39,639 nt of DNA. It comes from an uncultured bacterium (GTDB taxonomy: Bacteria > Spirochaetota > Spirochaetia > B11-G9). The notes under the pieces are model-generated. The model saw only the letters and a list, made by a program, of their open reading frames with translations. It did no database searches and was not told the DNA's origin. Each line of letters opens with the position of its first letter. Position 1 is the first letter of the stretch. Both the position numbers and the translations under genes were made by a program. The stretch is taken from contig CBDVAD010000001.1 of NCBI GenBank assembly GCA_965371875.1, positions 1 to 39,639 on the forward strand, read 5' to 3'. Below, piece after piece: positions 14,061 through 39,639 of the stretch.

Positions 14061-14126
14061 GAAGCAGGAACACAAAATTGCCTGTTGTAGTAGTTATGAG
14101 GACTATAAAATTTACTTTATTTTTTC
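14061..14126 (+). repeat. 66-nt 5' module (upstream region + first ~10 codons), copy A
   Basis: About 89% identical (7 mismatches in 66) to 15392-15457: TGAAGCAGGAACACAAAATTGCCTGTTGTAGTAGTTATGAGGACTATAAAATTTAC.... My hand-counted coordinates here may be off by 1 nt. Confidence 0.75.
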
Positions 14127-15376
14127 TTTTATTTTATATTTGGAAATCTTTATTACTGCCTGGGAATGTAATAGGCAGCAAGCTGGAGGACAATGATTTT
14201 ATTACCAGGGTTATTCTCAAAGAAGTGAATTATTCATTTTGTTTCCTTAGCGGTATGGATATAAGGAGCTCTGATATTGATATGGACTTTTCATTTGAGT
14301 CATATTTTATTAGAGCAGGACGGTTAAAAAGAAAGGGAGTATGGAGGGAATTATTTAACCCTCTGAGTGTATCTGCGGGTTCCTATTTGTTTAGTGAATT
14401 ACCAGGCCTTGGAAAAGATTATTCATATTATACCGGAGGGATTTATGGTCTGTCCTGTGGAATCGAAAAAGGGCCAGGTCTAAGTATTCTTTTTACAGAT
14501 AATTTGTGGATTGGAGGTCACTATACAATTGGCTCAGATCCTTTTTTACTAACAGCCTTTCTTTCAACCGGTAAATATAATAATATTCCATCGACTGACT
14601 GGACAAGTGATTTTCAGATAGTCCCTGTAACAGATCCCATTCATCTTGGCATAAATACAATTCTGGATTGGAATAAATTAAAAATTGATTATCTGGGATC
14701 TCTTTCCGGAAGTAATACATACAAAGCAGGTTCTTATAACCGTATTCATATTGATTTACTATGGGAAAAATTGAGTTTTAAAGGTTTTGGCGGAATAACT
14801 TCTCCGGATTTCATTAGTTCTGATCTAAACCTGACAGAGGATAAATATTTACTCAGTTTTTGGATTGGAATTTATCCCTGTAGGCATTGGGAAACTATAC
14901 TAAAATTACAATATAGTGAAGAACATCTCCCTGTTCTTCCTGTTGCTTTTATTCCCATCTCCGGCGGCTCTTCTCTTAAAATTAAATATGATAATTCAAA
15001 GTTTATTTTTACCAGCGAACTTGGGCAGAAATTTGATTTCGACAGTAATGGAACAGAATCTGTGGCAAACAAGTTTGACACAAGGATAGGCATTTCCGGA
15101 CGACTCTCCATATTCGGCAGTATTGGGTTCACTTCAAATTTTGATAACCTCACAGAGAGACGATTTGAACTGAATGCAGGTTGGAGTAAGAGGGGTACTG
15201 ATGTAGAAATTATTTATAAATATAAGGAAGAAATCTTTGAGCCAGTAGACCAGTACAGGTTAAGACTGAAGGTTGATCAGGAATTTGGGGAGGGGTCTGT
15301 TTTCCTCAGGTTTGAGATAAAAGAAGGGTGGCTGCTGGAAGGTTTATCTGTGGGTTTTAAAACTGTTTTTTCATAG
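14096..15376 (+). CDS. Hypothetical envelope protein, probably an outer-membrane beta-barrel
   Basis: Start taken at the internal ATG (MRTIKFTLFFLLFYIW...). It has a hydrophobic N-terminus and long runs of alternating polar/hydrophobic residues rich in Gly/aromatics, and it ends ...GFKTVFS. I recognised no family motif. Confidence 0.55.
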   Translation: MRTIKFTLFFLLFYIWKSLLLPGNVIGSKLEDNDFITRVILKEVNYSFCFLSGMDIRSSDIDMDFSFESYFIRAGRLKRKGVWRELFNPLSVSAGSYLFSELPGLGKDYSYYTGGIYGLSCGIEKGPGLSILFTDNLWIGGHYTIGSDPFLLTAFLSTGKYNNIPSTDWTSDFQIVPVTDPIHLGINTILDWNKLKIDYLGSLSGSNTYKAGSYNRIHIDLLWEKLSFKGFGGITSPDFISSDLNLTEDKYLLSFWIGIYPCRHWETILKLQYSEEHLPVLPVAFIPISGGSSLKIKYDNSKFIFTSELGQKFDFDSNGTESVANKFDTRIGISGRLSIFGSIGFTSNFDNLTERRFELNAGWSKRGTDVEIIYKYKEEIFEPVDQYRLRLKVDQEFGEGSVFLRFEIKEGWLLEGLSVGFKTVFS

Positions 15377-15391
15377 TTGCTCTTTTTGCAT

Positions 15392-15457
15392 TGAAGCAGG
15401 AAATCAAATTTGCCTGTTATAGTAGTTATGGGGATTATAAAATTTATTTTATTTTTT
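15392..15457 (+). repeat. 66-nt 5' module, copy B (in front of and into the prepilin peptidase gene)
   Basis: See 14061-14126. Both copies place TATAGT/TGTAGT 6 nt before the ATG. Confidence 0.75.
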
Positions 15458-15901
15458 GCCACATTCCTGATTTTCTCAGTTCCTGCTTCTGTAATAGATA
15501 TTAAACAGAAGCGGATTCCTGACCTGATTGTTTTTCCGGCAGTAGTAGTACTATCAGCATTTCGAAAAATTAGTTTTGGTGATCCGTTAATAAGAATACT
15601 ATTGGAGATTCTGTTAGGATATTTGATTTTTATTGGAATCCGATTTTTAACAAAAGGAAAGCTTGGGATGGGAGATGTAAAGTTTGCAGCCTTAATGGGG
15701 GTCTTTATTGGATTTCCAGGTTGGTTCGTTGCTACAGGATTGGCCTCTCTTTTTGGACTTGTATTTGCAGTAATAGGTTTATTATCCGGAAGGATAGATA
15801 AAAAAACGAAGATTCCCTTTGCTCCTTTTTTAACAGCCGGAAGTATTGCTGCATTCTTTTTAAATTATGATATTTTATTAAAAATTCAGGTTTGGATATA
15901 A
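15428..15901 (+). CDS. gspO: Prepilin peptidase, short A24 form (TadV/CpaA-like size, no N-terminal methyltransferase region)
   Basis: 157 aa from ATG (MGIIKFILFF...). It contains the two catalytic Asp contexts 'KRIPDLIVFP' and 'LGMGDVKFAALMG'. Confidence 0.88.
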   Translation: MGIIKFILFFATFLIFSVPASVIDIKQKRIPDLIVFPAVVVLSAFRKISFGDPLIRILLEILLGYLIFIGIRFLTKGKLGMGDVKFAALMGVFIGFPGWFVATGLASLFGLVFAVIGLLSGRIDKKTKIPFAPFLTAGSIAAFFLNYDILLKIQVWI

Positions 15902-18075
15902 TGAGAAAATTATTTTTTATATTACTATTGCCTGTAACTGTCATTTTGCTGCCTGCTCAGGAAATAAAGCAGATGGAATTTGTAAACCAGTCGATAAAGG
16001 ACATCCTGTTTACTCTTGCACAAACAACGGGTAGTTCCATTATCGCCGATGATACTGTGGATGGGGATGCATCATATTATTTTACTGATACCGATCTTGA
16101 TACTGCTCTGGAGCATTTTCTTTCCCACTATGACCTCTATTTCTGGAAAAAAGATGGAATCTACTACGTTTCAAAGATTATGGTGAAATATAATGAGACT
16201 ACCAGCGCATTAACACTTTTTGCAAAGGATGTGGAGCCCCGATTGATCTTTGAGAAGATATCAAAAGAAATAAAGTCTACTATTCTTTATGATGCTCTTC
16301 CCCGTGATTTGCTGACGGTAAACGCTGATGCCCTTCCTGTGGACAAAGTAATAGAAATTGTAATGCGTCGTTTTACAGACTATGAAATTGAAAGCCTTGA
16401 TGACTACATCTATGTAAAGAGACGATTGGTTGAACGGGGTGTTTCTCCCGAAAGGACTGCCGGTACAATTACTGCTTCTATTAATGGGGACAATAGTCTT
16501 TTTTCAATTTCAGTGGATTCAATACGTTTGTCTGATGCATTATCACAGCTTTTTTCAGAATCAGGATATGAATATTCAATGATGAAAAGAGGGGATTCTG
16601 TTCTGGAAAACATCCATTTCAAGAAAAAGTCGTTTGATGAATTATTACATCTTTTACTGGAACGGAGTGATGGAGATTTTACTGTACGTAAGGGTATCTA
16701 TTATATCTTTGATGTTTCCAGGAACGAAATCCTTAAAAAACTGGACAATGTTGAATATATAAAGCTGAACAATATTCCTGTTGAACTTCTTCCCACACTG
16801 TTTCCTTCGGGGCTTGCAAGTTCTTCTATTTTTAAGATCGACAAGGAAAATAATGCAATTATTCTTTCCGGCAGCTTCGAAGAAATTGGTCCTGTAAGGG
16901 AGTTTATTGCAAAAATAGAATCTGAATATGAAGAAAAACAGGTATCAAAACTTTATCTTTCTTTTCTTACTGTGGATGAGCTTTTAAAGCTGCTTCCTGT
17001 CCGTTTGCAGAAACTTCAGATTACTAGAACAGGTAGTTCCCGGGTATTGATTCTTGAAGCAGCAAAAAAGCTTTCAGATGACTTTTTCTATTATGCAGGG
17101 ATGATCGACAGACCGAACGAAGGGCTTGCCATACACCTTAAATATATAAGGGCGGAAGATCTGTTAAAAAATCTTCCCCCATCTGTCAGTGAAAATGATA
17201 TTGTCAAATCAGCTGACCCAAACATGGTCTTTTTTAAGGGTTCTAAAGATAAGCTTAATCGATTCCTTAAGGACCTGGAATATATTGATAAGCCTATTCC
17301 TCAGATTAGGTATGAACTTCTTGTTGTGCAGTATCAGGAAAGTAAAAATAAAGAATTTGGTCTTACTGCCAGTAATGAGATAATGCAGGAGGGAGCACAG
17401 ACTTCCATTCTTGGGACACTGGGCAATCTTATAAATCTGAATCTTGATATTGTGACAACTTTTGGCTATCTGTTTGCCATAGATCTAAATGCTAAAATAA
17501 GTGATACGGAAGCGAGGATCATGGCCGACACTACCCTGAATGGTCTTACAGGTGAGGATATCAGTTTTCAGAACACCAATACCTACAGATACAGAGATAT
17601 GGAAATTGACCCTGATACAGGTGAAGCACAATCGACAGGTGTAACCCGTGAAATTACGTCCGGTCTTATAATCAGCATAAACGGCTGGGTTTCCGGTGAC
17701 AATATGATAACAATGGATGTGAAGTCCACAGTTTCAAAGAGGGGCGCAGATGTCTCATCTTCAACAGGAAATCCTCCTCCTACTTCAGAGAAGGTTATAA
17801 GTACTCATGTACGCACTCCATCTGGGAAGCCTGTGATAATTAGCGGCCTTCTTCAGCAGGAAAGGGATGTAATTCTTCAGAAAACCCCCATTCTAAGCAG
17901 CATCCCACTTCTGGGATGGCTGTTTACAAGTGAAGTTGAAACATCCACGAATACAGAATTGATTATCTATATTGTTCCCTATATTGAATATCCTGAACGT
18001 GAAAGGCTTGCGAGTGACAAGATCTTTAAAGACTACTATAAGAGTTTTTTCGAGGGAAAGAGTTCATGGAACTGA
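15901..18075 (+). CDS. gspD: Secretin (GspD/PilQ family)
   Basis: The ATG overlaps the peptidase TAA. Signal peptide MRKLFFILLLPVTVILLPAQE. C-terminal secretin domain '...SGLIISINGWVSGDNMITMDVKS...VRTPSGKPVIISGLLQQE...KTPILSSIPLLGWLF...TELIIYIVPYI'. Confidence 0.92.
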   Translation: MRKLFFILLLPVTVILLPAQEIKQMEFVNQSIKDILFTLAQTTGSSIIADDTVDGDASYYFTDTDLDTALEHFLSHYDLYFWKKDGIYYVSKIMVKYNETTSALTLFAKDVEPRLIFEKISKEIKSTILYDALPRDLLTVNADALPVDKVIEIVMRRFTDYEIESLDDYIYVKRRLVERGVSPERTAGTITASINGDNSLFSISVDSIRLSDALSQLFSESGYEYSMMKRGDSVLENIHFKKKSFDELLHLLLERSDGDFTVRKGIYYIFDVSRNEILKKLDNVEYIKLNNIPVELLPTLFPSGLASSSIFKIDKENNAIILSGSFEEIGPVREFIAKIESEYEEKQVSKLYLSFLTVDELLKLLPVRLQKLQITRTGSSRVLILEAAKKLSDDFFYYAGMIDRPNEGLAIHLKYIRAEDLLKNLPPSVSENDIVKSADPNMVFFKGSKDKLNRFLKDLEYIDKPIPQIRYELLVVQYQESKNKEFGLTASNEIMQEGAQTSILGTLGNLINLNLDIVTTFGYLFAIDLNAKISDTEARIMADTTLNGLTGEDISFQNTNTYRYRDMEIDPDTGEAQSTGVTREITSGLIISINGWVSGDNMITMDVKSTVSKRGADVSSSTGNPPPTSEKVISTHVRTPSGKPVIISGLLQQERDVILQKTPILSSIPLLGWLFTSEVETSTNTELIIYIVPYIEYPERERLASDKIFKDYYKSFFEGKSSWN

Positions 18076-19568
18076 CAGAAGAGATGCCAGAAGAAATAGA
18101 CGGCGTATTAGTTTCAGATTTCCTGCCTCTTCCTGATGAGAAGAATCAATACAGTTCTGATTTTATAGAAACCCATTCGGCAATTGTTTTAAAGACAGAT
18201 GATATTTCCGTTACCATCGGTATCTGCAGCCCTGGCAACACTGAGTTAAGAGAAACACTTTTTCATTTTCATGATAAGAAGATTATATATAAGCAAATTG
18301 ATCATGATGAACTCTCAGAATATCTTGGGAAACTTCACGGGGGACTTGATGATCAGAATCTTTCAGCGGCTTCTTCGGTCAATGAAAAACTGCTCCTTGA
18401 TAAAATTGCCAATGATGCGCCTATAATCAATTTTGTAAATAGTACTATCATTGAGGGAATTCGCAAAAGGGCATCGGATATTCATATCGAAACCTTTACC
18501 GATACTGTTAAGGTCCGGTACCGGATCGATGGAGTCCTCCAGACAGTCAATCAGATATCCCCTTCCATGTTTCCGGCAGTATCATCACGAATCAAGATAA
18601 TGTCTAATTTGAATATCATGGAGCGAAGGCTTCCTCAGGACGGTAGAATATCGGTCCATCTTGGGGGAGATACTCAGGATATTCGTGTTTCTATTGTCCC
18701 GACAGCGAGGGGTGAATCTATTGTTCTCCGGTTGTTAAATAGAAAAAGTGCACTTATAGGACTTGATGAAATAGGCCTCCGGAATAAGGGTCTCATCGAT
18801 ATCAGGAAAATGCTTAAAACTCCTTTTGGTTTGATTCTCGCTACCGGCCCTACAGGAAGCGGAAAAACTACCACCCTGAACTCCATGCTCCGGGAGATGG
18901 ATAGTGAGAGTCAGAAAATAATAACAATAGAAGACCCTATTGAATATGTGATCGACGGCATTGATCAGATTCAAACTAATGAAGCTATAGGACTTACTTT
19001 TACAAGTATTCTAAAACGTATTCTTAGACAGGACCCGAATATTATAATGGTCGGTGAGATAAGAGACCAGGAAACTGCAGATCTATGTATCCGTGCAGCT
19101 TTGACGGGGCACCTGGTTCTTTCAACACTTCATACAAATGATGCTGTCTCTGTAATAGACAGGCTTCGGGATATGGGCATTGAGCCTTTTATGATTGCTG
19201 CAGTTCTTAAAACATCCATGGCACAGCGACTGGTAAGAAAATTGTGCCCTGACTGCATGAAGAAGAGGAAAATCGGTTCTGCTGAGAAAGAGTTCTTCAG
19301 GGAAACCGGAAGCATACCTGAATACATCTTTGATGCAGTTGGATGTGACAGCTGCGATGGAACAGGGTATCATGGACGGACACTTATTCATGAGTATTTT
19401 TCCTGGGATGAAGAGATTGAACGTCTGATTGCAGCAGGCGCAAAACATTCTGAGATAAAAGCATATTTGAAAAAAACGGGAATGGTCACTTTATTTTCAG
19501 ATGGTCTTATAAAGATAAAAGAGGGTATGACTACCCTTGCAGAGCTTGAAATGGTAATGACAGTCTGA
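18066..19568 (+). CDS. gspE: Type II secretion / type IV pilus assembly ATPase (GspE/PilB family)
   Basis: 'DIHIE', 'RYRIDGVL', 'LPQDGRI', Walker A 'GPTGSGKTTT', 'IMVGEIRD', 'TGHLVLSTLHTND' and a tetracysteine motif CPDC...CDSC. Confidence 0.95.
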   Translation: MELTEEMPEEIDGVLVSDFLPLPDEKNQYSSDFIETHSAIVLKTDDISVTIGICSPGNTELRETLFHFHDKKIIYKQIDHDELSEYLGKLHGGLDDQNLSAASSVNEKLLLDKIANDAPIINFVNSTIIEGIRKRASDIHIETFTDTVKVRYRIDGVLQTVNQISPSMFPAVSSRIKIMSNLNIMERRLPQDGRISVHLGGDTQDIRVSIVPTARGESIVLRLLNRKSALIGLDEIGLRNKGLIDIRKMLKTPFGLILATGPTGSGKTTTLNSMLREMDSESQKIITIEDPIEYVIDGIDQIQTNEAIGLTFTSILKRILRQDPNIIMVGEIRDQETADLCIRAALTGHLVLSTLHTNDAVSVIDRLRDMGIEPFMIAAVLKTSMAQRLVRKLCPDCMKKRKIGSAEKEFFRETGSIPEYIFDAVGCDSCDGTGYHGRTLIHEYFSWDEEIERLIAAGAKHSEIKAYLKKTGMVTLFSDGLIKIKEGMTTLAELEMVMTV

Positions 19569-20770
19569 TGAACAGGTATAAATGCACGGTTTCTGATAAG
19601 AACGGGAAGATCCTGAAATTTGTCCGCCAGGGCAGCTCTCCTGCAGCCATTCAGTCAGAACTTCAGAAGGAAGAGTACTTCCCTATTTCCATTCGGGAGC
19701 AGGCTGCAAAGAACACCAAAGGACAAGCCTATAGCTCAAAAAAGACAATTGCCGAATTCACTGCTCTGTTATCAATGCTTCTTGATTCAGGCTTGAGTGT
19801 AAAGGATGGGCTTGAAATCCTGAAAACAATTACTAAGGATATTAAAGTCAACGCTCTGGTTTATGCAATAGAAAAAGACTTAAAAGCCGGTTCTTCATTT
19901 TATTCAAGTATCAGGAATATAGGTCCCTCACTTCCTGCTATATATTCGAGTATGGTAAAGGTAGGTGAGACGACCGGAGATATCGCTTATGTATTCCGGA
20001 AGATTAATGATTATCTTATCAGGCAGAAAAGAATAAGTGAGAAGCTTGTCAGTTCATTGATCTACCCTGTTATTGTGTTGTCTGTTGCCGTATTCAGTAT
20101 GATACTTATTTCAACATTTATCATACCTAAAATGTCGGAAATATTTATCGATCTCGGTTCCGGTGTTCCCGATGAGGTCAGTCAGGTTCTTTCATTTTCG
20201 AAGGGAATTTTTACTGGTTTTCTTATTACAATTCCTCTTGTAGTAATCTTAGGTGTTGTCATATCTGCGTTTCGGAAAAGAAATAGTAATTTTGCGGTTA
20301 CTGTCGATTGGTTGAAACTTAAAGTGCCTTTTATTGGATCTTTCAGTGAAGATAATCACTTCCTGAACATTCTGTTTACTTTGGATGCGCTTACATCCTG
20401 CGGTGTAACCGTGGAAGATGCCCTGGCCGAGGTCACGGGTACTGCTGACAATGCAGCTATAAAGGAAGCATTTATCCTCGTCCATGAGAAAGTTCTTAAA
20501 GGTACCAGTCTTTCGATCGCTCTCTCTGATGAGAATATTATCCCTCTCAGAATTTCCAAATGGATTTCTGTTGGAGAGAGAACCGGCAGTATGAAAAAAG
20601 TTTTCGGCCAGTTGTCGGATTATTATGAGAATGAACTGGAGAAGAAATCGACGAGATTTATGAGTCTCATAGAACCTGCTCTAATAATATTTACAGGGGG
20701 AATAGTGTTTGGAATTGTGATGATGGTAATTATTCCCCTGTTTTCTACTTTCGGGACAATCCTGGAATGA
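19568..20770 (+). CDS. gspF: Type II secretion platform protein (GspF/PilC family)
   Basis: 400 aa with a duplicated T2SSF-type architecture: two soluble repeats ('LSMLLDSGLSVKDGLEIL', 'LFTLDALTSCGVTVEDALAEV') and three TM segments. ATGA/TGATG start-stop overlaps with both neighbours. Confidence 0.92.
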   Translation: MNRYKCTVSDKNGKILKFVRQGSSPAAIQSELQKEEYFPISIREQAAKNTKGQAYSSKKTIAEFTALLSMLLDSGLSVKDGLEILKTITKDIKVNALVYAIEKDLKAGSSFYSSIRNIGPSLPAIYSSMVKVGETTGDIAYVFRKINDYLIRQKRISEKLVSSLIYPVIVLSVAVFSMILISTFIIPKMSEIFIDLGSGVPDEVSQVLSFSKGIFTGFLITIPLVVILGVVISAFRKRNSNFAVTVDWLKLKVPFIGSFSEDNHFLNILFTLDALTSCGVTVEDALAEVTGTADNAAIKEAFILVHEKVLKGTSLSIALSDENIIPLRISKWISVGERTGSMKKVFGQLSDYYENELEKKSTRFMSLIEPALIIFTGGIVFGIVMMVIIPLFSTFGTILE

Positions 20771-21885
20771 AAATTAAATTGTTTTACTATAATAGTAATG
20801 GCTTAGATAGAAATTTGATAAACCTTTGCGGTACTACTCCTGCGGGTAGGATAGAGCCAAAACAAAAGTTTTATATACTGCCTGACAGACAGATGAGCTT
20901 TGCAAAAATACTGAATTTACCTCCGGTCGCGGTCAATAAACTCCGTGATATGGTTCGCTATCAGATAATTAAAATTTATCCGGGCGGCAGTAAAGATGTA
21001 TTCTTTGATTTCATCCCCTTTAAAACTGAGGCAGGATGGAAGATTGTTCTATACATTCTTAAGAAGAAGAACATAAACGAAGCTATGGGTAATAAAAGGT
21101 TTAGGGGTATTGTTTTACCTCTGCAGCTTCTGTTTAAGATGGAATTACAAAGTATCTCTACTCTTATTATTTTTTATCCTGATATGGTGGAGATATGGAA
21201 GTTTGTAAATGGAATCCCGGAAAGAATAGAAAGGCATGATCCGGAAGGGTTTTCTGTTCAGGATTCACTGTTATCAGAAAACGAAATATTCAATCCTGAA
21301 AAACTTATGACCATTTACCCCAATAATGAAATGCTGGAATGGGAAAGAAAGAACGGCAGGACAAAGAAATTTTCTGAAACTCTGGATTCCATCAGAAATG
21401 ATACGATCTATTTCCATGAATTAAGGGTAACAAAATCTGATAAAATAACACCGATTATTACCATTACTGCTTTCATCATTTCCCTCCATCTATTAGCAAT
21501 GACCGTCTTGAAGCAGCAAGACCTTGTAAGAGCAGTGACTGAGGTAGATTCACAAATTACAGATGTTCGTATGGAGACCGTACATAACCAGAAAGCCCTT
21601 GGAATAATTGAAAAACTGGATGATGAGTTAAAACAGATCAGGGGAAATGCTCCAATAAATGTCTATAATCTCCTTCTTCGAACCAGAAAGGTAATAGATT
21701 TAGATTCTCTATTATTATCATTTACACTTAAAGGTATGGACCTGACTCTGACTCTTAGAAGTAGAAGTGCACTTAGTGATTTGGAAAGTATTAAGGAAGA
21801 GTTTGGTAATGTAAGAGCATCCAATATCCGTACCCTGGAGGATGGTAATAAAAGTTACACAGTCTGGGTTGAGATAAAACAGTGA
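20767..21885 (+). CDS. Bitopic assembly protein, GspL- or PilM/PilN-like (tentative)
   Basis: 372 aa with a cytoplasmic N-domain ('LNLPPVAVNKLRDMVRYQIIKIYPG'), a single TM helix (ITPIITITAFIISLHLLAMTVL) and a periplasmic C-domain. The call rests on position and topology only. Confidence 0.45.
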   Translation: MKIKLFYYNSNGLDRNLINLCGTTPAGRIEPKQKFYILPDRQMSFAKILNLPPVAVNKLRDMVRYQIIKIYPGGSKDVFFDFIPFKTEAGWKIVLYILKKKNINEAMGNKRFRGIVLPLQLLFKMELQSISTLIIFYPDMVEIWKFVNGIPERIERHDPEGFSVQDSLLSENEIFNPEKLMTIYPNNEMLEWERKNGRTKKFSETLDSIRNDTIYFHELRVTKSDKITPIITITAFIISLHLLAMTVLKQQDLVRAVTEVDSQITDVRMETVHNQKALGIIEKLDDELKQIRGNAPINVYNLLLRTRKVIDLDSLLLSFTLKGMDLTLTLRSRSALSDLESIKEEFGNVRASNIRTLEDGNKSYTVWVEIKQ

Positions 21886-22373
21886 AAAAGAAAATTATTG
21901 TTTTTATATTTATTACTCTGGCTGTTATAAATACTTTTTCAGCAGGATTCTGGATATGGGACATTGGACAGAAAATGGAACTCCTTGAGCAGAAGAAAGA
22001 GAATGCCCTGGAATTGGATAGTTCTATTTATAATAACACTTCTTTAAAGCTTGTAATTTCAAAACTGGAGGAAGAAGTATCTGTAGAAAAAGCTTTTATA
22101 CGTGAAGACAGGGAATTTAATACACTTAAAATGACCGAAGAAGTTCTCCTCCTTCTTAAAGAAAATAGAATCAAGGTGATTAGCTACCGTCTGGAAGGTG
22201 AAGAAAACAGAGAAGAACTTGCCCTTACTGCCGAAGGAAAGCCAGGGTCGATTATAAAATTGATTTATGAGCTCTCTTTTTCTAAAAAAGGATATCGTAT
22301 TAATTTTGTTAAGATAGATGCAAAATCCCCGGGGGAACAGTCTACACTCGTAATCAGGATTACATATGCATAA
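21882..22373 (+). CDS. Small bitopic protein, GspM/PilO-like (tentative)
   Basis: 163 aa with an N-terminal TM helix and then a coiled-coil-like segment. GTG start overlapping the upstream stop. The call rests on position and topology only. Confidence 0.4.
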   Translation: MKKKIIVFIFITLAVINTFSAGFWIWDIGQKMELLEQKKENALELDSSIYNNTSLKLVISKLEEEVSVEKAFIREDREFNTLKMTEEVLLLLKENRIKVISYRLEGEENREELALTAEGKPGSIIKLIYELSFSKKGYRINFVKIDAKSPGEQSTLVIRITYA

Positions 22374-22836
22374 TATCAATCTGCAAGGTCTTTTGCGATC
22401 TGTTTCTATAATAATTATTTCTTTGGTTGTTTTTCTCTATATTGGGCTTACTGTCTTCTTAGCGGATATTATTTTAGAAAGTAGTAATTCACAACCCCGG
22501 AAAGAGTATGAATATAGAGACAGTGCAAAGGGTACGAGTGTTCCGGAATTTACATATAACCTTGAATCACTTTTTCTAAAACAGTTGATTCCGGTGATAG
22601 TTGAAACAAAAATTGTAACTGAATCTATTCCCCCTGTGGCTCCTCCCTCATTGCAGTTTGTGGGAATGATTGAAACTGACGAGGCAATAATTTATTCCTT
22701 CCGGAATATGGATACAAACAGACTGCTTCTTCTTGAGGAAGGAGTTGAAATGGCAGGTATCACACTGCTTTCTGTTGAGTCGACAGGATATACATTTAAG
22801 AATAATGAAATTACATTCCAGGTGGATAAGAAATGA
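22366..22836 (+). CDS. Small bitopic protein, GspC/PilP-like (tentative)
   Basis: 156 aa with an N-terminal TM helix. The C-terminal 'LQFVGMIETDEAIIYSFRN...LLLEEGVEMAGITLLSVES' resembles the secretin-contacting beta-domain of GspC/PilP. Confidence 0.4.
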   Translation: MHNINLQGLLRSVSIIIISLVVFLYIGLTVFLADIILESSNSQPRKEYEYRDSAKGTSVPEFTYNLESLFLKQLIPVIVETKIVTESIPPVAPPSLQFVGMIETDEAIIYSFRNMDTNRLLLLEEGVEMAGITLLSVESTGYTFKNNEITFQVDKK

Positions 22837-23552: not shown

Positions 23553-24030
23553 AATTAAGTTTAGAGCCAATATTAAGACCAGTATTAAAAAACTAAAAGC
23601 CTTGATAAAGAATGAAGATGGATGGACTTTCGTTGAAACTCTGATAGTTATCTCTATTGTTTTAATTCTTACAAGTACTGTGGGTTTCATGGCTTTCAGG
23701 TATGTTGGCAAAGCCAAAATAGTTGCGGCCAAAACGCAGATAGAAAATCTTTCCATGGCTTTAGATACCTATTTCATGGATAACATGCGCTACCCTATAG
23801 AGGAACAGGGACTTGGAGCCTTATGGGAGAAACCCATTCTTGAACCGATACCAAAGAATTGGGACGGACCATATCTTAAAAAGAATCTTGCGAAGGACCC
23901 CTGGGAAAATGATTATGAATATGTAGTACCAGGGCCCAATGGATTACCTTATGGAATAAGCTCTCCTGGAGCAGATGGAACACCAGGAGGTGAAGGAGAT
24001 GCAAGGGATATCACTTCCTGGGAGAATTAA
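23545..24030 (+). CDS. gspG: Type II secretion major pseudopilin GspG
   Basis: Prepilin N-terminus '...NEDG|WTFVETLIVISIVLIL' (Glu at +5). T2SS-G signature 'AKTQIENLSMALDTYFMDNMRYP' and 'DPWENDYEYVVPGPNG...SPGADGTPGGEGDARDITSW'. Confidence 0.93.
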   Translation: MTEIKFRANIKTSIKKLKALIKNEDGWTFVETLIVISIVLILTSTVGFMAFRYVGKAKIVAAKTQIENLSMALDTYFMDNMRYPIEEQGLGALWEKPILEPIPKNWDGPYLKKNLAKDPWENDYEYVVPGPNGLPYGISSPGADGTPGGEGDARDITSWEN

Positions 24031-24031
24031 A

Positions 24032-25799: not shown

Positions 25800-25828
25800 T
25801 TAAGTTATTTTAATAATGTTTCCTAATA

Positions 25829-25897: not shown

Positions 25898-25914
25898 AAA
25901 GTGTGTGTGGTGGT

Positions 25915-28436: not shown

Positions 28437-28437
28437 G

Positions 28438-29211: not shown

Positions 29212-29222
29212 GCAGGTAGATA

Positions 29223-29882: not shown

Positions 29883-29895
29883 GAGCCTATAATTA

Positions 29896-32800: not shown

Positions 32801-35800
32801 AATTTAGAGATTTTATCCGGCTGAACAATGGTGCTGATAATGTAGTAAGAAACTATCTTCTTTTGGAATCGAGCCTGTCTCAGAGACATAGCCTGTTTTA
32901 TTATACTGACTTTTCAGGAAGCAGTGTTTTGCCTGAAGAGTCCGGCGGAGCCAGAAGTTTTCTTAAATCGGCTCCTTTGATAAGTATTGAACCTAAAATA
33001 GATATAACTGAAGATAACATGACCCCTGGAGCTGAACTTTACAATGGGGAGATTCTTCTTGATAGGATTTATAATGAGACAGGAGATGAAGTTGTTGCGA
33101 CTTTAAGTCTGGTTCCTGACAATGGTGCTCTGCAGCTTGTTAGTACAGGCAGTCAGGGTTCGGGTGTTATTATTGGATCTGTGGTAACTGAATCTGCCGG
33201 TGGAATAAGTGCTTCTTTTTTACGGAACGGAATAAAACACAGCTATAGTTTAAGCAATCCTGAAAGTGTTCTAACCGGTTTGCCCTCGGATATATATGAT
33301 AGTGAAGTTCTTGATGCAGTTACATCCGGTTATGACTTTGTATATTTCCCTTCTCATACCAGTTTGAGTATTTCCGATTATAACACGATTTATGGAACAA
33401 TAGATGTCCAGGAGGATAAGAACTTTTTTCAGACAGTTTATGATCGATATCCGGAAGTATCCGATATCGAAGAGTACATACTTAAAGATCCAATGTTGCC
33501 GGAAGAGCTTGATCATCTGAATGTTATACTGCCTGGAGTTAATTTACCTGCAAATTATACCTTGCTGCCTCTTTTAGAGTATGCATCTGTCTACAATTCT
33601 GCATCTACTAAAGATAAAGTCTTCCTTGAAGAAATTTACTCACGATCCCCTGAAATACCTCCCATAGAAAGATATGATCTTGTATCAGGTATAAGCATCC
33701 CGGATGAAACACGTCTTGTCCTTATTTTTGATACTTTAAGTGATGACGGGGTTTCCATACATGATAATCCATTGTTTTTATCCGGAAACACAAACAGTGT
33801 CGGAATTATTGCTTTAAGTGAAGCTGAATATACAGATTATTTTGAAGAAAAGGCTGATATTCAAAGTCTTTTTAACGAAGTTGTAAATGATGATTCAGAT
33901 ACCTTTTTTATTCTAAAAAATAATATTACAGAAGCAGAAAAGAATGTATTTGAGACTGCATGCCGTCAATATTTAAGGGATGAAATTGAATTTCCTTATT
34001 ATGAATACAATGAGGCTGAAGGGCTGTTTACCATAAGATCCGGATTAAACAGTACTGAGTTAACTGAGATATCCACTCTCTTTTCAGGACTGGATTTAAG
34101 TGTATTTACAACTCTTAACAGAAGCTTACGGTATTATTCCAATGCAGTGCTCCCTGTTGTTTATGAAAGTGCAGCTGCAGTTTCAAGTGTGGATAATCCT
34201 GTTCCGGAAGGAACCGGCCCCCTGAACCATACAAATCCAGGTACTGTCAGCATTCCATATTTTGATAACCTTGGGAGAAGTTCATATTTAATTAAGTATA
34301 TTCATAACTATTATTCAGAATCTGACTATAGTTCAGAAAATCTAATAAATTATCCTGAAAATATATATAACGAGAGTGCTCTGATTGGTACTGAACTTAT
34401 TGAAAATACTCCTGAGGACAGAATACCTGATAGTTTTGAGATATTCAGCGGAGGAGTAGCCGGTTGGTATTACGGTGTCTGGACTGGCTATCATGGTCTT
34501 TTCCAAAATGAAAAGCTCCACGCCATTCCTCCTGAGAACGGTCCGGGAGAAGTAATCCGTCCGAAATACTTTACTCCTATGAAACAGAATATAAAAGATA
34601 ATAATGATCCTATTAAAACTTCCGTGGGGAGAGATCAGATTTTTATACTGGATAAGTGGAGCCTTATTATGGATGCAAGTTCGTATACGGAATCTGACTT
34701 CACTGAAGAGGGAGAGCCGGTAAGTGTAAGCTACAACTTTGCACCTGCAATAAAAGGAAACCTGCTGCACGCTGACAGAAATGGAGGAGATACATATTTT
34801 AATGTTCCGCGAGGGAGTAAACCCATGGAGGGTGGAAAGATAGGATATTTAAGTTCTGGAAAATCTACTTCAAGAGATATAAAAGGAAGTCTGGATTTTG
34901 GTGTTGGTTCTTTAAGTTTATCACTAAGTGAAAATGAAGGAACATCATGGCAGTACCAGAATGTAATGGATATAAACGGTGATAGGTATCCTGATATAAT
35001 CTCCTATACTTCAGATAAAGATGGTTCAGGTAGTTTTTCAGTTGTAGAAGGAAATGGAACCGGATTTGGTTCTGTAGTTGATTATTCAAGTCCCGTCAAG
35101 CATCTTTCGTATAGTGAGAATCTGACCTACGGTTTCGGAGCTTCTCCCGGCAGTCATTTCCCTGGGATTGAACCGGCAATGTCACCTTCCGGCAGGGTGA
35201 AATCGACAGGAATTGGAACCCCTGACAGTGGATCGGGAGGGGGATTTGGATTCTCCGGTTTTAACGGAACAGCGGGTGTTTCCTTTAATACCCAGGGATT
35301 TACTGATGTCACAGGAGACGGACTTCCTGACCATATTCAGAGGAGTGGATCAGGGGTGTACAATGTAGCTATTAATAAGGGTGATAATAGTTTTGCAGAT
35401 CCAGCTGTTTCTTTTGGCAGCGGGATAGATGAGGATCTTTATGAAGGTACTGTGATTGCTTCCGGTTTATCAAAAACTGCAAAGGGTATAAGCTTTAGTA
35501 ATTCCGGTAGTCTTGGTACTGGTGTATCAGTATCGATAGCAAGTGTAGGTTTTAATGCCTCTGCTAATCGAACTCTGTCGCAGCTTATGGATATTAATGG
35601 CGATGGGTTGTCCGATCAGGTAGTTAAAAAACCTGCTGAGGATTTCTTCCGGGTACGATTTAATATGGGGGATGAGTTTGCTGATGATGAAACAAGAATA
35701 TACCGTCCGGATTGGGATCCTGATGGATTTCCAGATATAACAAGTGCCCTTGAATCTATTATTGGTGAAAATTCTGGTTCTTTTAGCAACCTGGATTTAC

Positions 35801-38800
35801 CTTTAGTGGGAAAACTTGATCTTACCCCTTCTGCTCTTCCTTCCAATGCAGAAGATAATCCATTTTTTTCCATTATCAATCCTCTTGGAATTGATGATGC
35901 CATAAGTTATACAAACGGTATATCAATCAATCTGGGAGCCAGTCTGCATTTAAATTTTAAAGCCTACCTGGTATTACTCAGGTTTGGGTTTGATGTAATT
36001 CCAGGTATAAACGGGTCTTATGCTGTGAGTACAACCAGCCTTTCCATGAAGGATATTAATGGAGATGGTCTTCCAGATCATGTTCTTAAAAGAACTGGAA
36101 GTGATGAGTTAAAGATAAAAATCAATAGTATGGGAATGACAGGCCTCCTTAATAAAATAACCATGCCCACAGGTGGAAACATGGACCTCGAATACGGCCG
36201 AAGGGGAAACACTGTCGACATGCCTCAGAACCGATATGTCCTTACTAAAGTAACAAAGAACGACGGTTATCAGGATGATCCGACTATGGCAGGAGAACAC
36301 AGTTACACGGAAACCTTTGACTACAAAGATGGATACTATGACAGAGGAGAGAGGAAATTCTACGGTTTTCATGAAGTATCAGTAACCAAAGGAGACGGAT
36401 CTGTTACAACAACAATCTATAATAATGATAATTACTATACAAAAGGACTTGTTTCTTCAACAGTAATAGAAAATGAAAACGGAATAACTTTCCTTGAACA
36501 GGAGAACAGCTACAGCCTGAGAAGTATTGGAACCTATACTGACGGAGACGTAAAGTACCCATACCTTTCTACGGAAATAAGCAGAACCTTTGATGTATCA
36601 GATTCTGATGTAATCGAAACAGAAAAACAATACTTTTATGACAGCCTGGGGAATGTTATTCGTATGGAAGATACAGGAATCTACTCAGATCCGGATGATG
36701 ATATAACATTGAATATAATCTATTCAGATGACCATAACAGTAATTATTTAATGAGTCTTCCGACAAGTCTGACAGTAAAAGATTCGACCGGTGATATAAT
36801 AAGAAAAAGAGAAGGAACTTACGACGGAAACGGAAATCTTACTGCCTTAAAAAGCTATTACAACGATTATGACTTCTCTGAATATACCTTCGGATATGAT
36901 GCTAATTATGGAAACTTAAGCTCTGTAGAAGATCCCCTTGGTTATAGAAAAGAATATACTTATGATAATGAAGTTCACCGATATGTAACAGAGATAGATA
37001 CTTCAAGTATTTATGGAGGAGATTCATATACCTCCACTCTAAGCTATGACTACAGATATGGCGTTGAAACATCCCAAACCGATAGTAACGGAAACACCCT
37101 GTCTAAGGAATATGATAATTTTGGACGGCTTAAAACCATAATAAGTCCATACGATACAGGAACGGTTAAAGCAGTGGAATACTCATACCTTACAGATACA
37201 TTTCCCTGGAAGGCACTGACAAAAAACAAGATAAGTTTCGATGCAGCAGACGTAAGTACCATGGACACTTATGTAATAATTGACGGCCTAAACAGAATAA
37301 TAAGCACAGCCAAAGAGGGAGAAGTCTACAATGAAAGTGGAAACCTGCATGGCTGGAACAAAAGCGGATATGTAAGCTATGACAACAAAGCACGACCAGT
37401 TGAAGAGGGCCAGACAGTCTTCGAAGAAACAAGCACTTCACCTGAAGTAGAGAAGACAGCATTACGTCCAACACTAAAAACATACGACGCACTGGACAGA
37501 ATACTAACCATAACCTTTCCTGACGATTCTTTAATAACAAAGATCTATTCTGTAGAGGGAAACATAACAAAAGAAACAGTTACAGATCCCCTTGGTAACA
37601 TAACGGAAACTTATAAAGACATTAGAGGAAATATTGTAAAATTAGAGAAAAAGGACTCAATAGGAACACTCCTGACAGAATCCTTTTACAGCTATAATGT
37701 CCTGGGGGAACTATTAAAAGTGCTGGATGCAAAAGGAAGTGAAGTTACCTTTACCTACGACATTCTTGGAAGAAGACTGACATTGCAAAGTCCGGAAACA
37801 GGATTAACAGAGTTCGAGTATGACAAAGCAGACCACCTTATAAGAAAGGTGGATGCAAACCTTAGAAATGACGGAGCATCCATAAACTACATCTACGGTA
37901 CCCTTGGAAGAATAGAAAAGATAGACTATCCATTTATGACCGATACAAGCTACACTTATGGTGCACAGGGAGATGACTACAACAGGGCAGGCAGAATAGT
38001 AAGAATAACGGACGAATCCGGAAGCACAGAAAACTACTATGGAGAACTCGGAGAAACAACCAGTGTAACAAAAACAATAGGCCGGCTTACACCTTTAGCA
38101 GATGACAAGAGTGCCAGCTTTAACTACACCTTCGACTACCAGGGAAGAATGGAAGCCATAACCTACCCCGATGGAGAGGTTGTAAGTTACGAGTACAACA
38201 GAGGCGGAGAAGTAGAAAAAGTAAGCAGTGTCCACAACGGTCTTTCTACAACCTACATAGAAAACATAGGTTACGACGAATACGGCCAGAGAGCATACAT
38301 AAAATATGGAAACGGAATAGAGACAAAGTATACCTACGATGAGGACCGGCGCTGGCTTAACAATATAGAAACCAAAAGTACTCTTAATACCTTACAGGAC
38401 ATTGATTACACCTTTGACAAAACAGGTAATATCCTGGCAATAGTAAACATATCGGGAAGGTATACAACGAACCAGAACTATGAGTATGACGGACTATATC
38501 AGCTGACAAAGGGAGAAGGATACTTCGAAGACAGGGAGTACGGCTTTACTAGTGGAACCTCCAGGTACATCCAGAACTTCAGCTATGACAGCACAGGAAA
38601 TATCCTCTCAAAGACAAGCAGTAACATGGTTACCCCTTCCGGCGGAGTAAGTGCTCTTAACTACAATTACAGCTATACATATTATACTGATAAACCAAAA
38701 CAGGCAGAAATAATTGGAAATTTATGGTATCTTTATGATGGTAACGGGAATATAATAGAAGAACGTGCAGGCGGCCATAGTACTGAAGGTATACAGGGCA

Positions 38801-39639
38801 GTGGAACAATTACAAAAAACGGGAAAATTACAGAAATGAACAGAGGCATAGCCCTTACAAGAAATACAGAAGAAGTAGATAACGTCTATAAACGAACCTA
38901 TGTCTGGGATGAAGAGAACCGTCTTAAGACAACAATAGACTCACAAACAGTAGAATACCGCTACGACAGCACAGGTGAACGGACAAACAAGATGTCTGAT
39001 GATGGAGGAGAGACTCTCTACTTCAACAGCATGTGGCTGGCTGCAGAAGACAGTTACGACTTCAGGCAGAGTAAAAATATCTATCTTGGAGAAACAAGAA
39101 TAGCTACACGGCTTAACATGGAAAGCGATCCTTCCACAGGTTATGAAGCGGTGAATACCTACTACTATCATCCGGATCATCTGGGCAGCAGTAATATTGT
39201 AACAACTCCGGATGGAGACGTGTTTGAGCATATTGAATACACCCCATATGGTGAGACATGGATTGAAAAGAGTGATGATATGTTTGATATGCTGCCCTAT
39301 AAATTTACCGCAAAGGAACTTGATGATGAGACGGGGCTCTACTACTACGGAGCGAGGTATCTGAATCCGAGGACTTCAAGGTGGATCAGTTCTGATCCGG
39401 CAATGGATGGAATTAATTGGTATGCATATGCAAATAATAATCCAGTGAAGTATATCGATCCTACTGGTTTAGAACCCATAATAGCAGATGATATTAATGG
39501 GCAACCAATATTAGAAAGAAAATATAAACCTGCTGGAGTCGATAATAAAATAATCAGAGAAAAATATGGTTATGGGAATGAATTTGATTCTACCAGCACA
39601 AAAGAATATATGACCATGGAAAATGGTCAAACTTTTCCT
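29896..39639 (+). CDS. Giant secreted TcB/TcC-like RHS polymorphic toxin, 3'-partial (>3,248 aa): signal peptide + SpvB-like + FG-GAP + RHS/YD shell + RHS core + start of the C-terminal toxin module
   Basis: It is not in the ORF track. Manual translation of every line from 29881 to 39639 in the frame of ATG 29896 (AGGAG at 29881-29885) found no stop. The last complete codon ends exactly at 39639. Motifs are listed in the findings. Confidence 0.9.
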   Translation, partial: MNNIRKNISFTILVLFIMSIVPFPLLADNAEVYKDIFTHKTPAERYIPVAVVASPSENEVPESAAETQTLASLQKQRPVSDSPVEFYSQKITPDVESILVYDGIKLEIPAGAVDKEVTIEIIKLKSAPRVNETIRNVTTGAESYRFLPDGIHFKKNIKISIPFSKALLESETALSNLFTYFFDENSNTWERLPRIEIDKEKTVVVSLTDHFTDMINGTLKMPESPGPVNFDINSIKNLEAANPSSGVMNLKGFTPDSQGSASFQIALNLPQGLGSAYPNLSLSYNSDSPNSWMGRGFDISVPSITTDTKFGLPDYDDSDTYILGGEELVLISGSGFPKSYRPRIEKEFKRIIRKLEGGVDYWEVTDKNGRVQTFGTEEGWIGPDRNNHTKTYTWYLTKETDTNGNFVSYIYDYDSDNKYTYLKEIHYSGNNNVSTSNSGPYKVVFNTSESRPDRRIDARGTFVSKLVRRLDSVDIYYNTEVIRTYEFTYEQNEFGQTVLNSFAELDGSGNEFYGYGFDYNKLSIHDAGTGIIAYDGFGDETIEWGAVSGPTFPGLNQTRTFGIGASLYLGVSVDIFKRIRWFKWGWRRLFSLGVSGGVNYSNTITKSTLLDINGDNLPDAVWKDGGVLRGYQNTGNGFDTSTDNDISLPGLPGLLNRNSQLGYNLGLSVTAGVLSGSLSMQNNWMKSKSSFNDIDGDGRIDYLIADSSKYYRNTTDSFTPTDYGTYVSLTQSENINEDDYLRTYYSQEPLRKWKAYTGGRIEISQSMNLLDSSLVSEDGVAAITYPDGGYPEFSIHLSSDQSEGSDTRSYNIEEGDELFFHMDAGIDSREDDINWDINIAYTDINYFEKMDDPSIIKLKELYYNSLPDDRLDRFYNSAYVQYEDDPPKKRWEYTLKSDWRNYLNSTSLAAVIEYGLFVPARISEDIFTGIFNRASDTEIIYTDNNNNSDDKIIPGEKAALIDSFLYRPEFRDFIRLNNGADNVVRNYLLLESSLSQRHSLFYYTDFSGSSVLPEESGGARSFLKSAPLISIEPKIDITEDNMTPGAELYNGEILLDRIYNETGDEVVATLSLVPDNGALQLVSTGSQGSGVIIGSVVTESAGGISASFLRNGIKHSYSLSNPESVLTGLPSDIYDSEVLDAVTSGYDFVYFPSHTSLSISDYNTIYGTIDVQEDKNFFQTVYDRYPEVSDIEEYILKDPMLPEELDHLNVILPGVNLPANYTLLPLLEYASVYNSASTKDKVFLEEIYSRSPEIPPIERYDLVSGISIPDETRLVLIFDTLSDDGVSIHDNPLFLSGNTNSVGIIALSEAEYTDYFEEKADIQSLFNEVVNDDSDTFFILKNNITEAEKNVFETACRQYLRDEIEFPYYEYNEAEGLFTIRSGLNSTELTEISTLFSGLDLSVFTTLNRSLRYYSNAVLPVVYESAAAVSSVDNPVPEGTGPLNHTNPGTVSIPYFDNLGRSSYLIKYIHNYYSESDYSSENLINYPENIYNESALIGTELIENTPEDRIPDSFEIFSGGVAGWYYGVWTGYHGLFQNEKLHAIPPENGPGEVIRPKYFTPMKQNIKDNNDPIKTSVGRDQIFILDKWSLIMDASSYTESDFTEEGEPVSVSYNFAPAIKGNLLHADRNGGDTYFNVPRGSKPMEGGKIGYLSSGKSTSRDIKGSLDFGVGSLSLSLSENEGTSWQYQNVMDINGDRYPDIISYTSDKDGSGSFSVVEGNGTGFGSVVDYSSPVKHLSYSENLTYGFGASPGSHFPGIEPAMSPSGRVKSTGIGTPDSGSGGGFGFSGFNGTAGVSFNTQGFTDVTGDGLPDHIQRSGSGVYNVAINKGDNSFADPAVSFGSGIDEDLYEGTVIASGLSKTAKGISFSNSGSLGTGVSVSIASVGFNASANRTLSQLMDINGDGLSDQVVKKPAEDFFRVRFNMGDEFADDETRIYRPDWDPDGFPDITSALESIIGENSGSFSNLDLPLVGKLDLTPSALPSNAEDNPFFSIINPLGIDDAISYTNGISINLGASLHLNFKAYLVLLRFGFDVIPGINGSYAVSTTSLSMKDINGDGLPDHVLKRTGSDELKIKINSMGMTGLLNKITMPTGGNMDLEYGRRGNTVDMPQNRYVLTKVTKNDGYQDDPTMAGEHSYTETFDYKDGYYDRGERKFYGFHEVSVTKGDGSVTTTIYNNDNYYTKGLVSSTVIENENGITFLEQENSYSLRSIGTYTDGDVKYPYLSTEISRTFDVSDSDVIETEKQYFYDSLGNVIRMEDTGIYSDPDDDITLNIIYSDDHNSNYLMSLPTSLTVKDSTGDIIRKREGTYDGNGNLTALKSYYNDYDFSEYTFGYDANYGNLSSVEDPLGYRKEYTYDNEVHRYVTEIDTSSIYGGDSYTSTLSYDYRYGVETSQTDSNGNTLSKEYDNFGRLKTIISPYDTGTVKAVEYSYLTDTFPWKALTKNKISFDAADVSTMDTYVIIDGLNRIISTAKEGEVYNESGNLHGWNKSGYVSYDNKARPVEEGQTVFEETSTSPEVEKTALRPTLKTYDALDRILTITFPDDSLITKIYSVEGNITKETVTDPLGNITETYKDIRGNIVKLEKKDSIGTLLTESFYSYNVLGELLKVLDAKGSEVTFTYDILGRRLTLQSPETGLTEFEYDKADHLIRKVDANLRNDGASINYIYGTLGRIEKIDYPFMTDTSYTYGAQGDDYNRAGRIVRITDESGSTENYYGELGETTSVTKTIGRLTPLADDKSASFNYTFDYQGRMEAITYPDGEVVSYEYNRGGEVEKVSSVHNGLSTTYIENIGYDEYGQRAYIKYGNGIETKYTYDEDRRWLNNIETKSTLNTLQDIDYTFDKTGNILAIVNISGRYTTNQNYEYDGLYQLTKGEGYFEDREYGFTSGTSRYIQNFSYDSTGNILSKTSSNMVTPSGGVSALNYNYSYTYYTDKPKQAEIIGNLWYLYDGNGNIIEERAGGHSTEGIQGSGTITKNGKITEMNRGIALTRNTEEVDNVYKRTYVWDEENRLKTTIDSQTVEYRYDSTGERTNKMSDDGGETLYFNSMWLAAEDSYDFRQSKNIYLGETRIATRLNMESDPSTGYEAVNTYYYHPDHLGSSNIVTTPDGDVFEHIEYTPYGETWIEKSDDMFDMLPYKFTAKELDDETGLYYYGARYLNPRTSRWISSDPAMDGINWYAYANNNPVKYIDPTGLEPIIADDINGQPILERKYKPAGVDNKIIREKYGYGNEFDSTSTKEYMTMENGQTFP

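Follow-up and report, generated by a model that had tools for sequence, protein, structure and literature searches.

A type II secretion-like cluster, a four-gene envelope module and a giant RHS toxin are linked across spirochaetes, suggesting a dedicated export or display route

The stretch of spirochaete DNA analysed here (39,639 nucleotides, contig CBDVAD010000001.1 of assembly GCA_965371875.1; hereafter the window) carries a type II secretion system (T2SS)-like gene cluster, followed by four envelope genes, which we call M1 to M4, and by a giant toxin gene of the SpvB-RHS kind. We find that this arrangement is conserved across spirochaetes, and we consider it probable, at roughly 0.6, that T2SS, M1–M4 and toxin form a three-part system, in which a dedicated, secretin-linked route exports or displays the toxin. 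A sequence-only reading of the window had proposed such a route for these genes; conserved synteny now supports it, while it is by inference that we let the toxin travel through the secretin.

The linkage was followed from each of the three parts of the locus, and the co-occurrence of T2SS and SpvB-RHS genes in related genomes, which the sequence-only reading had put forward as its check, found support in all three scans (15 of 18, 16 of 16 and 5 of 9 loci). In the T2SS-centred scan, a GspF alignment (A1) was compared with one genome per GTDB species, using two peptide patterns for the genome scan; this yielded 34 loci, 27 of them spirochaetal, and 18 with enough DNA to be informative. M1–M4 and the toxin adjoin the T2SS in 15 of these 18 spirochaete loci, lying co-oriented and directly downstream in 14 and inverted, directly upstream, in one (locus L026). 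Both module and toxin were absent at the seven non-spirochaete GspF matches. The module-centred scan, in which an M2 alignment was compared with metagenome contigs, returned 16 loci of at least 7 kb, several of them near-duplicates. A T2SS lies upstream of the module in every one; downstream DNA is available for 14 of them, and in 13 of these the toxin comes next. Finally, the toxin-centred set comprised nine spirochaete loci including the window, with L043 and L044 counted as one. M1–M4 are present in all nine, and a T2SS lies directly upstream in five: the window, L001, L003 (genome of 3.9 Mb), L004 (from Breznakiella homolactica) and L006 (from Treponema succinifaciens). A further one of the nine, L041, has a truncated secretin within the module. 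As a side observation, one metagenome-assembled genome (MAG), Treponema sp. RGIG9161, has a full T2SS-module-toxin locus on each of two contigs (L030 and L031) with identical tblastn identities, which reflects either a genuine duplication or an artefact of assembly or binning.

The block holds together down to about 23–30% identity in GspF and 30–40% in the toxin. It is found with two internal arrangements of the T2SS, E-F-L-M-C-lipoprotein-G-minors in loci of the window type and E-F-G-minors-large protein-lipoprotein in loci of the Treponema/Breznakiella type, and the module abuts the T2SS in both. The genes flanking the window locus are shared only with its two closest relatives. Since adjacency is kept despite rearrangement of the T2SS, inversion in L026 and loss of the flanks, the linkage appears to be independent of shared ancestry, and its recurrence in dozens of independent loci argues that it is not due to chance.

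A reduced form of the locus is seen in the oral Treponema sp. OMZ 906 (L041, CP051196.1), where the gene order is pilotin-like lipoprotein, M1, M2, M3, a 399-residue secretin, M4, toxin, two small genes and a second toxin, the tandem toxins being about 3,240 residues each. This secretin (8057–9256) is orthologous to residues 356–721 of the window secretin, at 42% identity; since the match is confined to these residues, the N-terminal (N0–N2) domains are missing. No GspE, GspF or GspG gene was found within 10 kb. Outside the spirochaetes, a Nitrospirota MAG (L042) encodes a 3384-residue SpvB-RHS protein without ZU5 or M1–M4 (1651–9221, minus strand), divergent from an adjacent MshE/PilM/PilN/PilO/secretin/pseudopilin cluster (10001–20155). 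Toxin and secretin may have become associated independently in this second phylum, though as a single case it could be coincidence.

The toxin open reading frame (ORF) occupies positions 29896–39639 on the plus strand, with 3248 codons and no stop before the window end. Pfam matches to SpvB (6e-24), TcdB_toxin_midN (6.9e-22) and RHS_repeat (8.4e-26) agree with the earlier designation of an SpvB/RHS toxin, and inspection of the N-terminus agrees with the classical Sec signal peptide that had been assigned to it: residues 1–27 (29896–29976; MNNIRKNISFTILVLFIMSIVPFPLLA, cleaved before DN) read as a signal peptide of the Sec type, and all aligned toxin relatives have hydrophobic N-termini. The signal peptide is followed by a ZU5-like autoproteolytic domain (30199–30540), which matches Pfam ZU5 at E 0.03–0.05 in the window toxin and is matched in 7 of 10 aligned members of the family, at best with 5.2e-5. 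An HFTDMI motif of the HF↓S/T autoproteolytic type (residues 210–215, nucleotides 30523–30540) closes the domain, and its HFT is kept in all nine spirochaete toxins. Compared with the PDB, a profile of the toxin N-terminus matched in its SpvB part only and returned no solved ZU5 relative.

The central part of the protein (30667–36453) consists of SpvB (residues 258–429), about 1600 residues with FG-GAP propeller signals, and TcdB_midN (residues 2041–2186). FG-GAP_3 is matched at 9.6e-8 on the middle segment, PDB matches connect the toxin to TcdB, YenB and the SpvB N-terminus, and the middle region is 20–41% conserved in relatives. The stretch between SpvB and TcdB_midN (residues 430–2040, 31183–36015) shows scattered FG-GAP signals only. 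SpvB and midN are about 300 residues apart in TcdB2, compared with about 1600 in the window toxin, which leaves about 1300 extra residues. The RHS/YD shell (36454–39471), to which the RHS_repeat match belongs, follows; residues 2733–3201 align to the shells of TccC3 (E 7e-35), YenC2 and Rhs proteins. The shell ends in PVKYIDPTGLEP (residues 3183–3194), with DPTGLEP from residue 3188 (nucleotides 39457–39477), and the contig end cuts the variable C-terminal toxin domain (39472–39639) after its first 56 residues.

More than 400 proteins of about 3,300 residues belong to the toxin family. Most come from Spirochaetales, Marispirochaeta, Breznakiella and Treponema, and the C-terminal tips of the family include M23, Amidase_2, NlpC/P60, VanY/M15, AHH and Tox-HDC domains. 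In Marispirochaeta aestuarii (L005), the DPTGLE motif is followed by an M23 tip; a lipoprotein gene comes next and is a candidate immunity gene. Downstream of the toxins in L003 (20074–30074) and L004 (22861–23640) we noticed small genes, orphan RHS-tip fragments with TEN_YD-shell matches and genes with NADase_transloc domains, which are the usual spare-toxin-tip array of polymorphic toxin loci. By its predicted architecture, with the tip type read in relatives, the window protein is an antibacterial polymorphic toxin of the signal peptide-ZU5-SpvB-propeller-RHS class. Its layout matches exactly that of the TcdB/TcaC-type polymorphic toxins of Zhang et al. 2012 (signal peptide, ZU5 autopeptidase, SpvB, integrin-like propeller, RHS and variable tip), who name spirochaetes among the carriers (PMC3482391). 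The export pathway of these toxins is left undefined there, and the label 'T2SS' stands for any toxin with a signal peptide; in the sections considered here the term 'secretin' does not occur, and no link to a T2SS or to M1–M4 is described (PMC3482391).

No PAAR, VgrG, Hcp, TcA, holin or endolysin family matched any of the window ORFs scanned with Pfam, which bears out their reported absence. Among the called genes in the 10-kb flanks of the toxin relatives, we found no alternative delivery genes, and none within 10 kb of the nine relatives was TcA-like. Delivery by a type VI secretion system (T6SS) was rejected in view of the missing PAAR, VgrG and Hcp. An insecticidal Tc toxin was likewise considered and rejected, given the lack of TcA, the antibacterial tips and the adjacent candidate immunity genes. 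Since the toxin carries a Sec signal peptide, it would enter the periplasm first, unlike T6SS Rhs effectors.

The four module genes lie between machine and toxin on the plus strand. M1 (26665–27423) encodes a membrane-anchored coiled-coil/TPR protein of 252 residues with an N-terminal hydrophobic helix, presumably its inner-membrane anchor, and weak TPR matches; its orthologues, of 209–562 residues, have clearer ones. M2 (27420–28436) encodes a predicted outer-membrane protein with a periplasmic alpha/beta domain and a small OmpA/OmpX-like barrel. In Foldseek searches with an AlphaFold model of M2 (mean predicted local distance difference test score, pLDDT, 82.6), the top matches of the barrel were the transmembrane barrels of OmpA, NspA and OmpX (E 2e-8 to 1e-5), and the N-terminal domain resembled TolB-N. 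As modelled, the barrel is too small to serve as a conduit. M3 (28438–29211), present in every module, is a lipoprotein (lipobox LLSC) with Fn3-like and PPC-like beta-sandwich domains, for which the fn3_5 and PPC matches are faint (E about 0.06). M4 (29223–29882), likewise a lipoprotein, has a lipobox whose cysteine is invariant and is predicted to fold as a concanavalin/lectin-like jelly roll (AlphaFold pLDDT 86.1), with Foldseek matches to CBM66, galectins, GH16 and the BoNT Hc-N domain (E about 1e-6 to 1e-5). The predicted M2 barrel and the M3 and M4 lipoboxes support the earlier view that beta-barrel and lipoprotein genes adjoin the toxin. No Pfam or NCBIfam family matched M1–M4, nor did the M2 alignment find anything in the PDB; the structure models compared by Foldseek were alone informative, and the folds that they matched are generic ones. 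The families of M2 and M4 have no Pfam entry and almost no named members, and every source name that identifies an organism is that of a spirochaete.

Upstream of the module, also on the plus strand, lies the T2SS-type machine. It starts with a short prepilin peptidase (15410–15901, 163 residues; Pfam Peptidase_A24 7.6e-15) that has the A24 domain only, without a methyltransferase domain; an A24 peptidase is found in most related loci. Next come a GspD-like secretin of 727 residues (15892–18075; Secretin 8e-26, Secretin_N 1.9e-7, STN weak), a GspE-type ATPase (18066–19568; T2SSE 2.7e-125, MshEN 9e-5) and a GspF-type inner-membrane platform protein (19568–20770; T2SSF 3.7e-43, in two stretches). 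Three membrane proteins of 372, 163 and 156 residues (20767–21885, 21882–22373 and 22366–22836), each with a hydrophobic segment and no Pfam or NCBIfam match, are 55–67% conserved in L007, L008 and L048. They are followed by a lipoprotein (22833–23552; lipobox LVSGC) with a CarboxypepD_reg/PEGA-like domain and TPR (CarboxypepD_reg 1.8e-6, PEGA 1.6e-4, TPR_19 1.9e-4). With few exceptions this lipoprotein is found beside the module, even in L041, where no GspE, GspF or GspG is nearby; it is a candidate pilotin-like partner of the secretin. The major pseudopilin GspG (23545–24030; T2SSG 3e-35) has the prepilin motif G↓WTFVE and precedes three minor pseudopilin-like genes, which are weakly conserved between loci by tblastn: one of about 73–85 residues (23975–24232; G↓FFLLD, read by eye), one of 177 residues (24183–24716; G↓FTLIE; N_methyl 2.7e-5) and one of 346 residues that is GspK-like without Glu5 (24759–25799; G↓FSSIQ, read in the translation). 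Apart from GspC, GspL and GspM, for which the three membrane proteins are candidates by position, the window therefore holds the parts by which a T2SS is recognised, namely secretin, GspE and GspF, GspG with minor pseudopilins, and prepilin peptidase; this is the set listed in the sequence-only reading, and Pfam matches confirm its core. Neither a PilT-type retraction ATPase nor PilMNOP was matched in the window with Pfam.

According to the ORF listing and the translation of the terminal ORF, every sizeable ORF from 14078 to 39639 lies on the plus strand, and the single co-oriented string that had been described up to the window end holds. Neighbouring genes overlap by 1–10 nt (up to about 50 nt with longest-ORF starts) or are separated by 1–42 nt. 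A putative REP-associated tyrosine transposase (RAYT) gene, flanked by gaps of 103 nt and 192 nt, makes the sole real break, as had also been stated, and the measured distance from the end of the T2SS to the toxin start, 4.1 kb, agrees with the earlier figure of about 4 kb. The first gene of the string (14078–15376) encodes a protein of 432 residues with a hydrophobic N-terminus and no Pfam or NCBIfam match. Only L007 and L008, the two closest relatives, also have this gene before the peptidase (46–51%), and its membership in the system is uncertain.

The putative RAYT cassette spans 25808–26669 on the plus strand, with its gene at 25903–26472 (NCBIfam REP_Tyr_transpos 9.8e-16, 57.9 bits, under the 80-bit cutoff; no Pfam match); the translation shows HIH and YYEH motifs. 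The gene is bracketed by a 90-nt direct repeat (25808–25897 and 26580–26669, 89% identical) that carries the motif TCTGAAGCA...ATACTA, also present upstream of M1 in the RAYT-less relatives L001, L048 and L008. Since the motif is single-copy in these relatives, the insertion appears to have duplicated a native promoter-like leader, so that an intact copy remains in front of the module. Relatives have a gap of 250–370 nt between T2SS and M1 that contains this conserved promoter-like motif; loci of the T. succinifaciens type have no such gap, and M1 overlaps there with the final gene of the T2SS. Inside the RAYT coding sequence we also noticed a perfect 28-nt G+C-rich palindrome (GTAGGGGCGACCGG/CCGGTCGCCCCTAC, 26186–26213), which encodes GRGDRPVAPTG and may be an embedded hairpin resembling repetitive extragenic palindromic (REP) elements.

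The module is found beside the toxin without a T2SS and beside a T2SS without the toxin, the secretin outlasts the rest of the T2SS, and the gene directly before the toxin is always M4. Together, this suggests that the module is an adaptor and that the secretin is the conserved outer-membrane element of the system. We propose that the toxin would cross the inner membrane via Sec and fold in the periplasm into an RHS shell that sequesters its C-terminal toxin domain, with self-cleavage at the HF↓T site of ZU5 and at the C-terminal DPxGL site. M1–M4, which would span the envelope, would hold the toxin and pass it to the secretin, and the pseudopilus machinery, where present, would power export or surface exposure; in oral treponemes with only a truncated secretin, some other driver would be needed. 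The module could then tether the toxin at the surface, for release or for firing at neighbouring bacteria. The order of these events and the role of each module protein are what we infer. In its most explicit form, the proposal is that secretin and M1–M4 carry the roughly 370-kDa shell-enclosed toxin across or onto the outer membrane, as a T2SS-derived interbacterial weapon that replaces TcA and T6SS, with a full pseudopilus in most lineages and a truncated secretin in oral treponemes (T. denticola group). We regard this form as tentative, somewhat short of an even chance.

Several points weigh against a dedicated route. The Tc-type RHS shell is about 10 nm wide, compared with about 7–8 nm for the lumen of a T2SS secretin. 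To our knowledge, passage of a folded protein of this size through a secretin would be unprecedented, and the toxin has about 1300 extra residues besides. Exceptions to the linkage were found in each scan. In the T2SS-centred scan, L019 has the module without an adjacent toxin, L013 consists of D-E-F with nothing recognisable after, and nothing beyond stray M4-like and M1-like genes was seen in L010; in the module-centred scan, L056 has T2SS and module without an adjacent toxin; and in the toxin-centred set, L002, L005 and L043/L044 have the module and no T2SS within 10 kb of the toxin. From the three toxin loci with a module and no T2SS, together with the toxin-less and T2SS exceptions, it follows that the tightest partner of the toxin is M1–M4 and not the T2SS. 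As the genome scan worked by two peptide patterns, its loci sample T2SS of this type and not all spirochaete T2SS. The three membrane proteins at 20767–22836 would be GspL, GspM and GspC candidates by position alone, and the gap of 250–370 nt with its promoter-like motif indicates that T2SS and module may be separate transcription units. The model as a whole is drawn from comparison and prediction.

L010 (15510–21199), from a termite-gut Treponema, is a rearranged variant in its own right: four unrelated ORFs (about 5 kb) separate the T2SS from an M1-like gene at the locus end, and an M4-like gene of opposite orientation immediately precedes the T2SS.

Some of these points could also be explained if M1–M4 alone handle and anchor the toxin, the T2SS serves components of the module (for example by bringing M3 and M4 to the surface, as Pul does for pullulanase), and the toxin leaves by vesicles, lysis or another route. 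Such a division of labour would account for a module in every spirochaete toxin locus, including the three without a nearby T2SS, and for module and T2SS without toxin in L019 and L056; it would also avoid sending a shell at or above the secretin size limit through the secretin, and the M3 and M4 lipoproteins have a size that is ordinary for T2SS cargo. However, L041 keeps a secretin inside the module with no GspE, GspF or GspG nearby, which ill fits pseudopilus-driven export of lipoproteins, no vesicle or lysis genes are linked to the locus, and the M2 barrel is too small as a conduit. On balance we regard this explanation as unlikely, and prefer a dedicated secretin-linked route.

We judge it improbable that the T2SS is a general-purpose machine with many unlinked substrates, beside which the toxin locus merely lies, through an integration hot spot or as co-regulated envelope genes, with the toxin perhaps one cargo of many. 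T2SS elsewhere usually do serve many cargos, a conserved promoter-like element separates T2SS and module, and some toxins are located away from a T2SS. Mere neighbourhood is nevertheless difficult to reconcile with adjacency in 15 of 18 informative species despite unconserved flanks and internal rearrangement of the T2SS, or with the overlap of the last T2SS gene and M1 in T. succinifaciens-type loci; moreover, all recovered spirochaete T2SS loci with enough DNA are of the linked type, except L010 and L013. Equally improbable is a surface fibre (type IV pilus-like or an extended pseudopilus) built by the T2SS-like genes for contact or to carry the toxin at its tip, as PilY1-type propeller adhesins sit on minor pilins: the propeller region of the toxin, the four pilin-like genes and the MshE/PilMNO-type pilus cluster beside the Nitrospirota relative would suit it, but the major pilin is clearly a T2SSG-type pseudopilin (3e-35), PilT-type retraction ATPase and PilMNOP were not matched in the window, and oral treponemes retain the secretin without pilin genes nearby.

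The window as a whole has a G+C content of about 38%, and its nearest GspF relatives are uncultured Spirochaetia MAGs (79–82% identity). Genes in the left 14 kb, among them a kinase/FHA/vWA cluster and acetate kinase, are unrelated to the locus. The signalling cluster (3542–9725) comprises a Ser/Thr kinase (5287–6924), a membrane FHA protein (6878–7819), a vWA protein (7851–9335) whose C-terminal region looks FHA-like by eye, without a profile match, and a small FHA protein (9387–9725); it is preceded by two uncharacterised, paralogous-looking proteins. Further to the left, a 77-nt repeat with a G+C-rich hairpin core (CCCCGGAGGGG) occurs at 1176–1252 and 2462–2538 (90% identical), and a YhgA-like (Transposase_31) gene (1479–2426) sits between its two copies; the whole could represent a small mobile element or one of REP type.

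We found no report in the open-access literature that links Rhs/Tc toxins to a T2SS or a secretin in spirochaetes. Already known are the parts of the T2SS and, since 2012, the ZU5-SpvB-RHS toxin class; what would be new, on comparative and predictive grounds, is a polymorphic toxin as dedicated cargo of a T2SS, together with a novel accessory module of four proteins. The linkage supplies concrete candidates for how Sec-dependent RHS/Tc-like toxins leave diderm cells without PAAR/VgrG or TcA. If the proposed route is correct, it would challenge the size limit that is accepted for cargo of T2SS secretins, and spirochaetes of the gut, rumen, termite and oral cavity would possess a major interbacterial weapon. 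A comparative study from 2021 gives the number of complete secretion systems in treponemes as zero (PMC8049484), and this published statement that treponemes lack secretion systems would then need revision. Some carriers can be cultivated, namely Treponema succinifaciens, Breznakiella homolactica RmG30 and the T. denticola group, which is also genetically tractable. In T. denticola, TDE1558, a 3,320-residue YD protein that two papers mention only as an annotation and as a microarray-table entry (PMC3747143, PMC7586716), fits the toxin family by size and annotation and is a candidate member.

Parts of the locus resemble known systems, each with clear differences. As in Slam (type XI) secretion, the genes of a TPR protein (M1) and an outer-membrane barrel protein (M2) are neighbours and precede those of lipoproteins, and one M1 orthologue has a faint TPR_Slam match. 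In Slam, however, a DUF560-type 14-stranded barrel is fused to the TPR, whereas the spirochaete module has TPR and barrel on separate proteins and the M2 barrel is small, of the OmpA/OmpX/NspA type, with no DUF560 match. We considered M1 and M2 as a split Slam and rejected this on account of the small, OmpA-like barrel. With PAAR/VgrG-linked T6SS Rhs effectors, the toxin shares an RHS shell around a polymorphic antibacterial toxin, as well as, in relatives, candidate immunity genes and orphan cassettes downstream; it differs in that no PAAR, VgrG, Hcp or other T6SS gene was found in the window or its relatives.

The closest likeness of the toxin itself is to the TcB-TcC cocoon (TcdB2-TccC3, YenB-YenC2), with which it has in common the N-terminal SpvB domain, the propeller, TcdB_midN and the RHS shell, and then a C-terminal DPxGL autocleavage motif before a variable toxin domain. 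In contrast to TcB-TcC, the spirochaete toxin fuses B and C in one protein with a signal peptide and ZU5, and the window toxin has about 1300 additional residues between SpvB and midN. Whereas Tc toxins come with TcA, no TcA gene was found in the window or in the flanks of its relatives, and the tips of the relatives are antibacterial (peptidoglycan hydrolases and nucleases) and paired with candidate immunity genes.

For the machine, the nearest parallel is the Pul T2SS of Klebsiella, with its secretin, GspE, GspF, GspG, minor pseudopilins, prepilin peptidase and small lipoprotein partner. There, too, the machine is encoded beside the gene of a Sec-dependent surface cargo (pulA beside pulC-O and pulS). 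The Pul cargo is a 116-kDa enzyme, whereas that of the window would be a shell-forming RHS toxin of about 370 kDa, and the window peptidase lacks the methyltransferase domain. In the spirochaete system, unlike in Pul, a four-gene envelope module lies between machine and cargo, and one spirochaete clade retains a truncated secretin alone.

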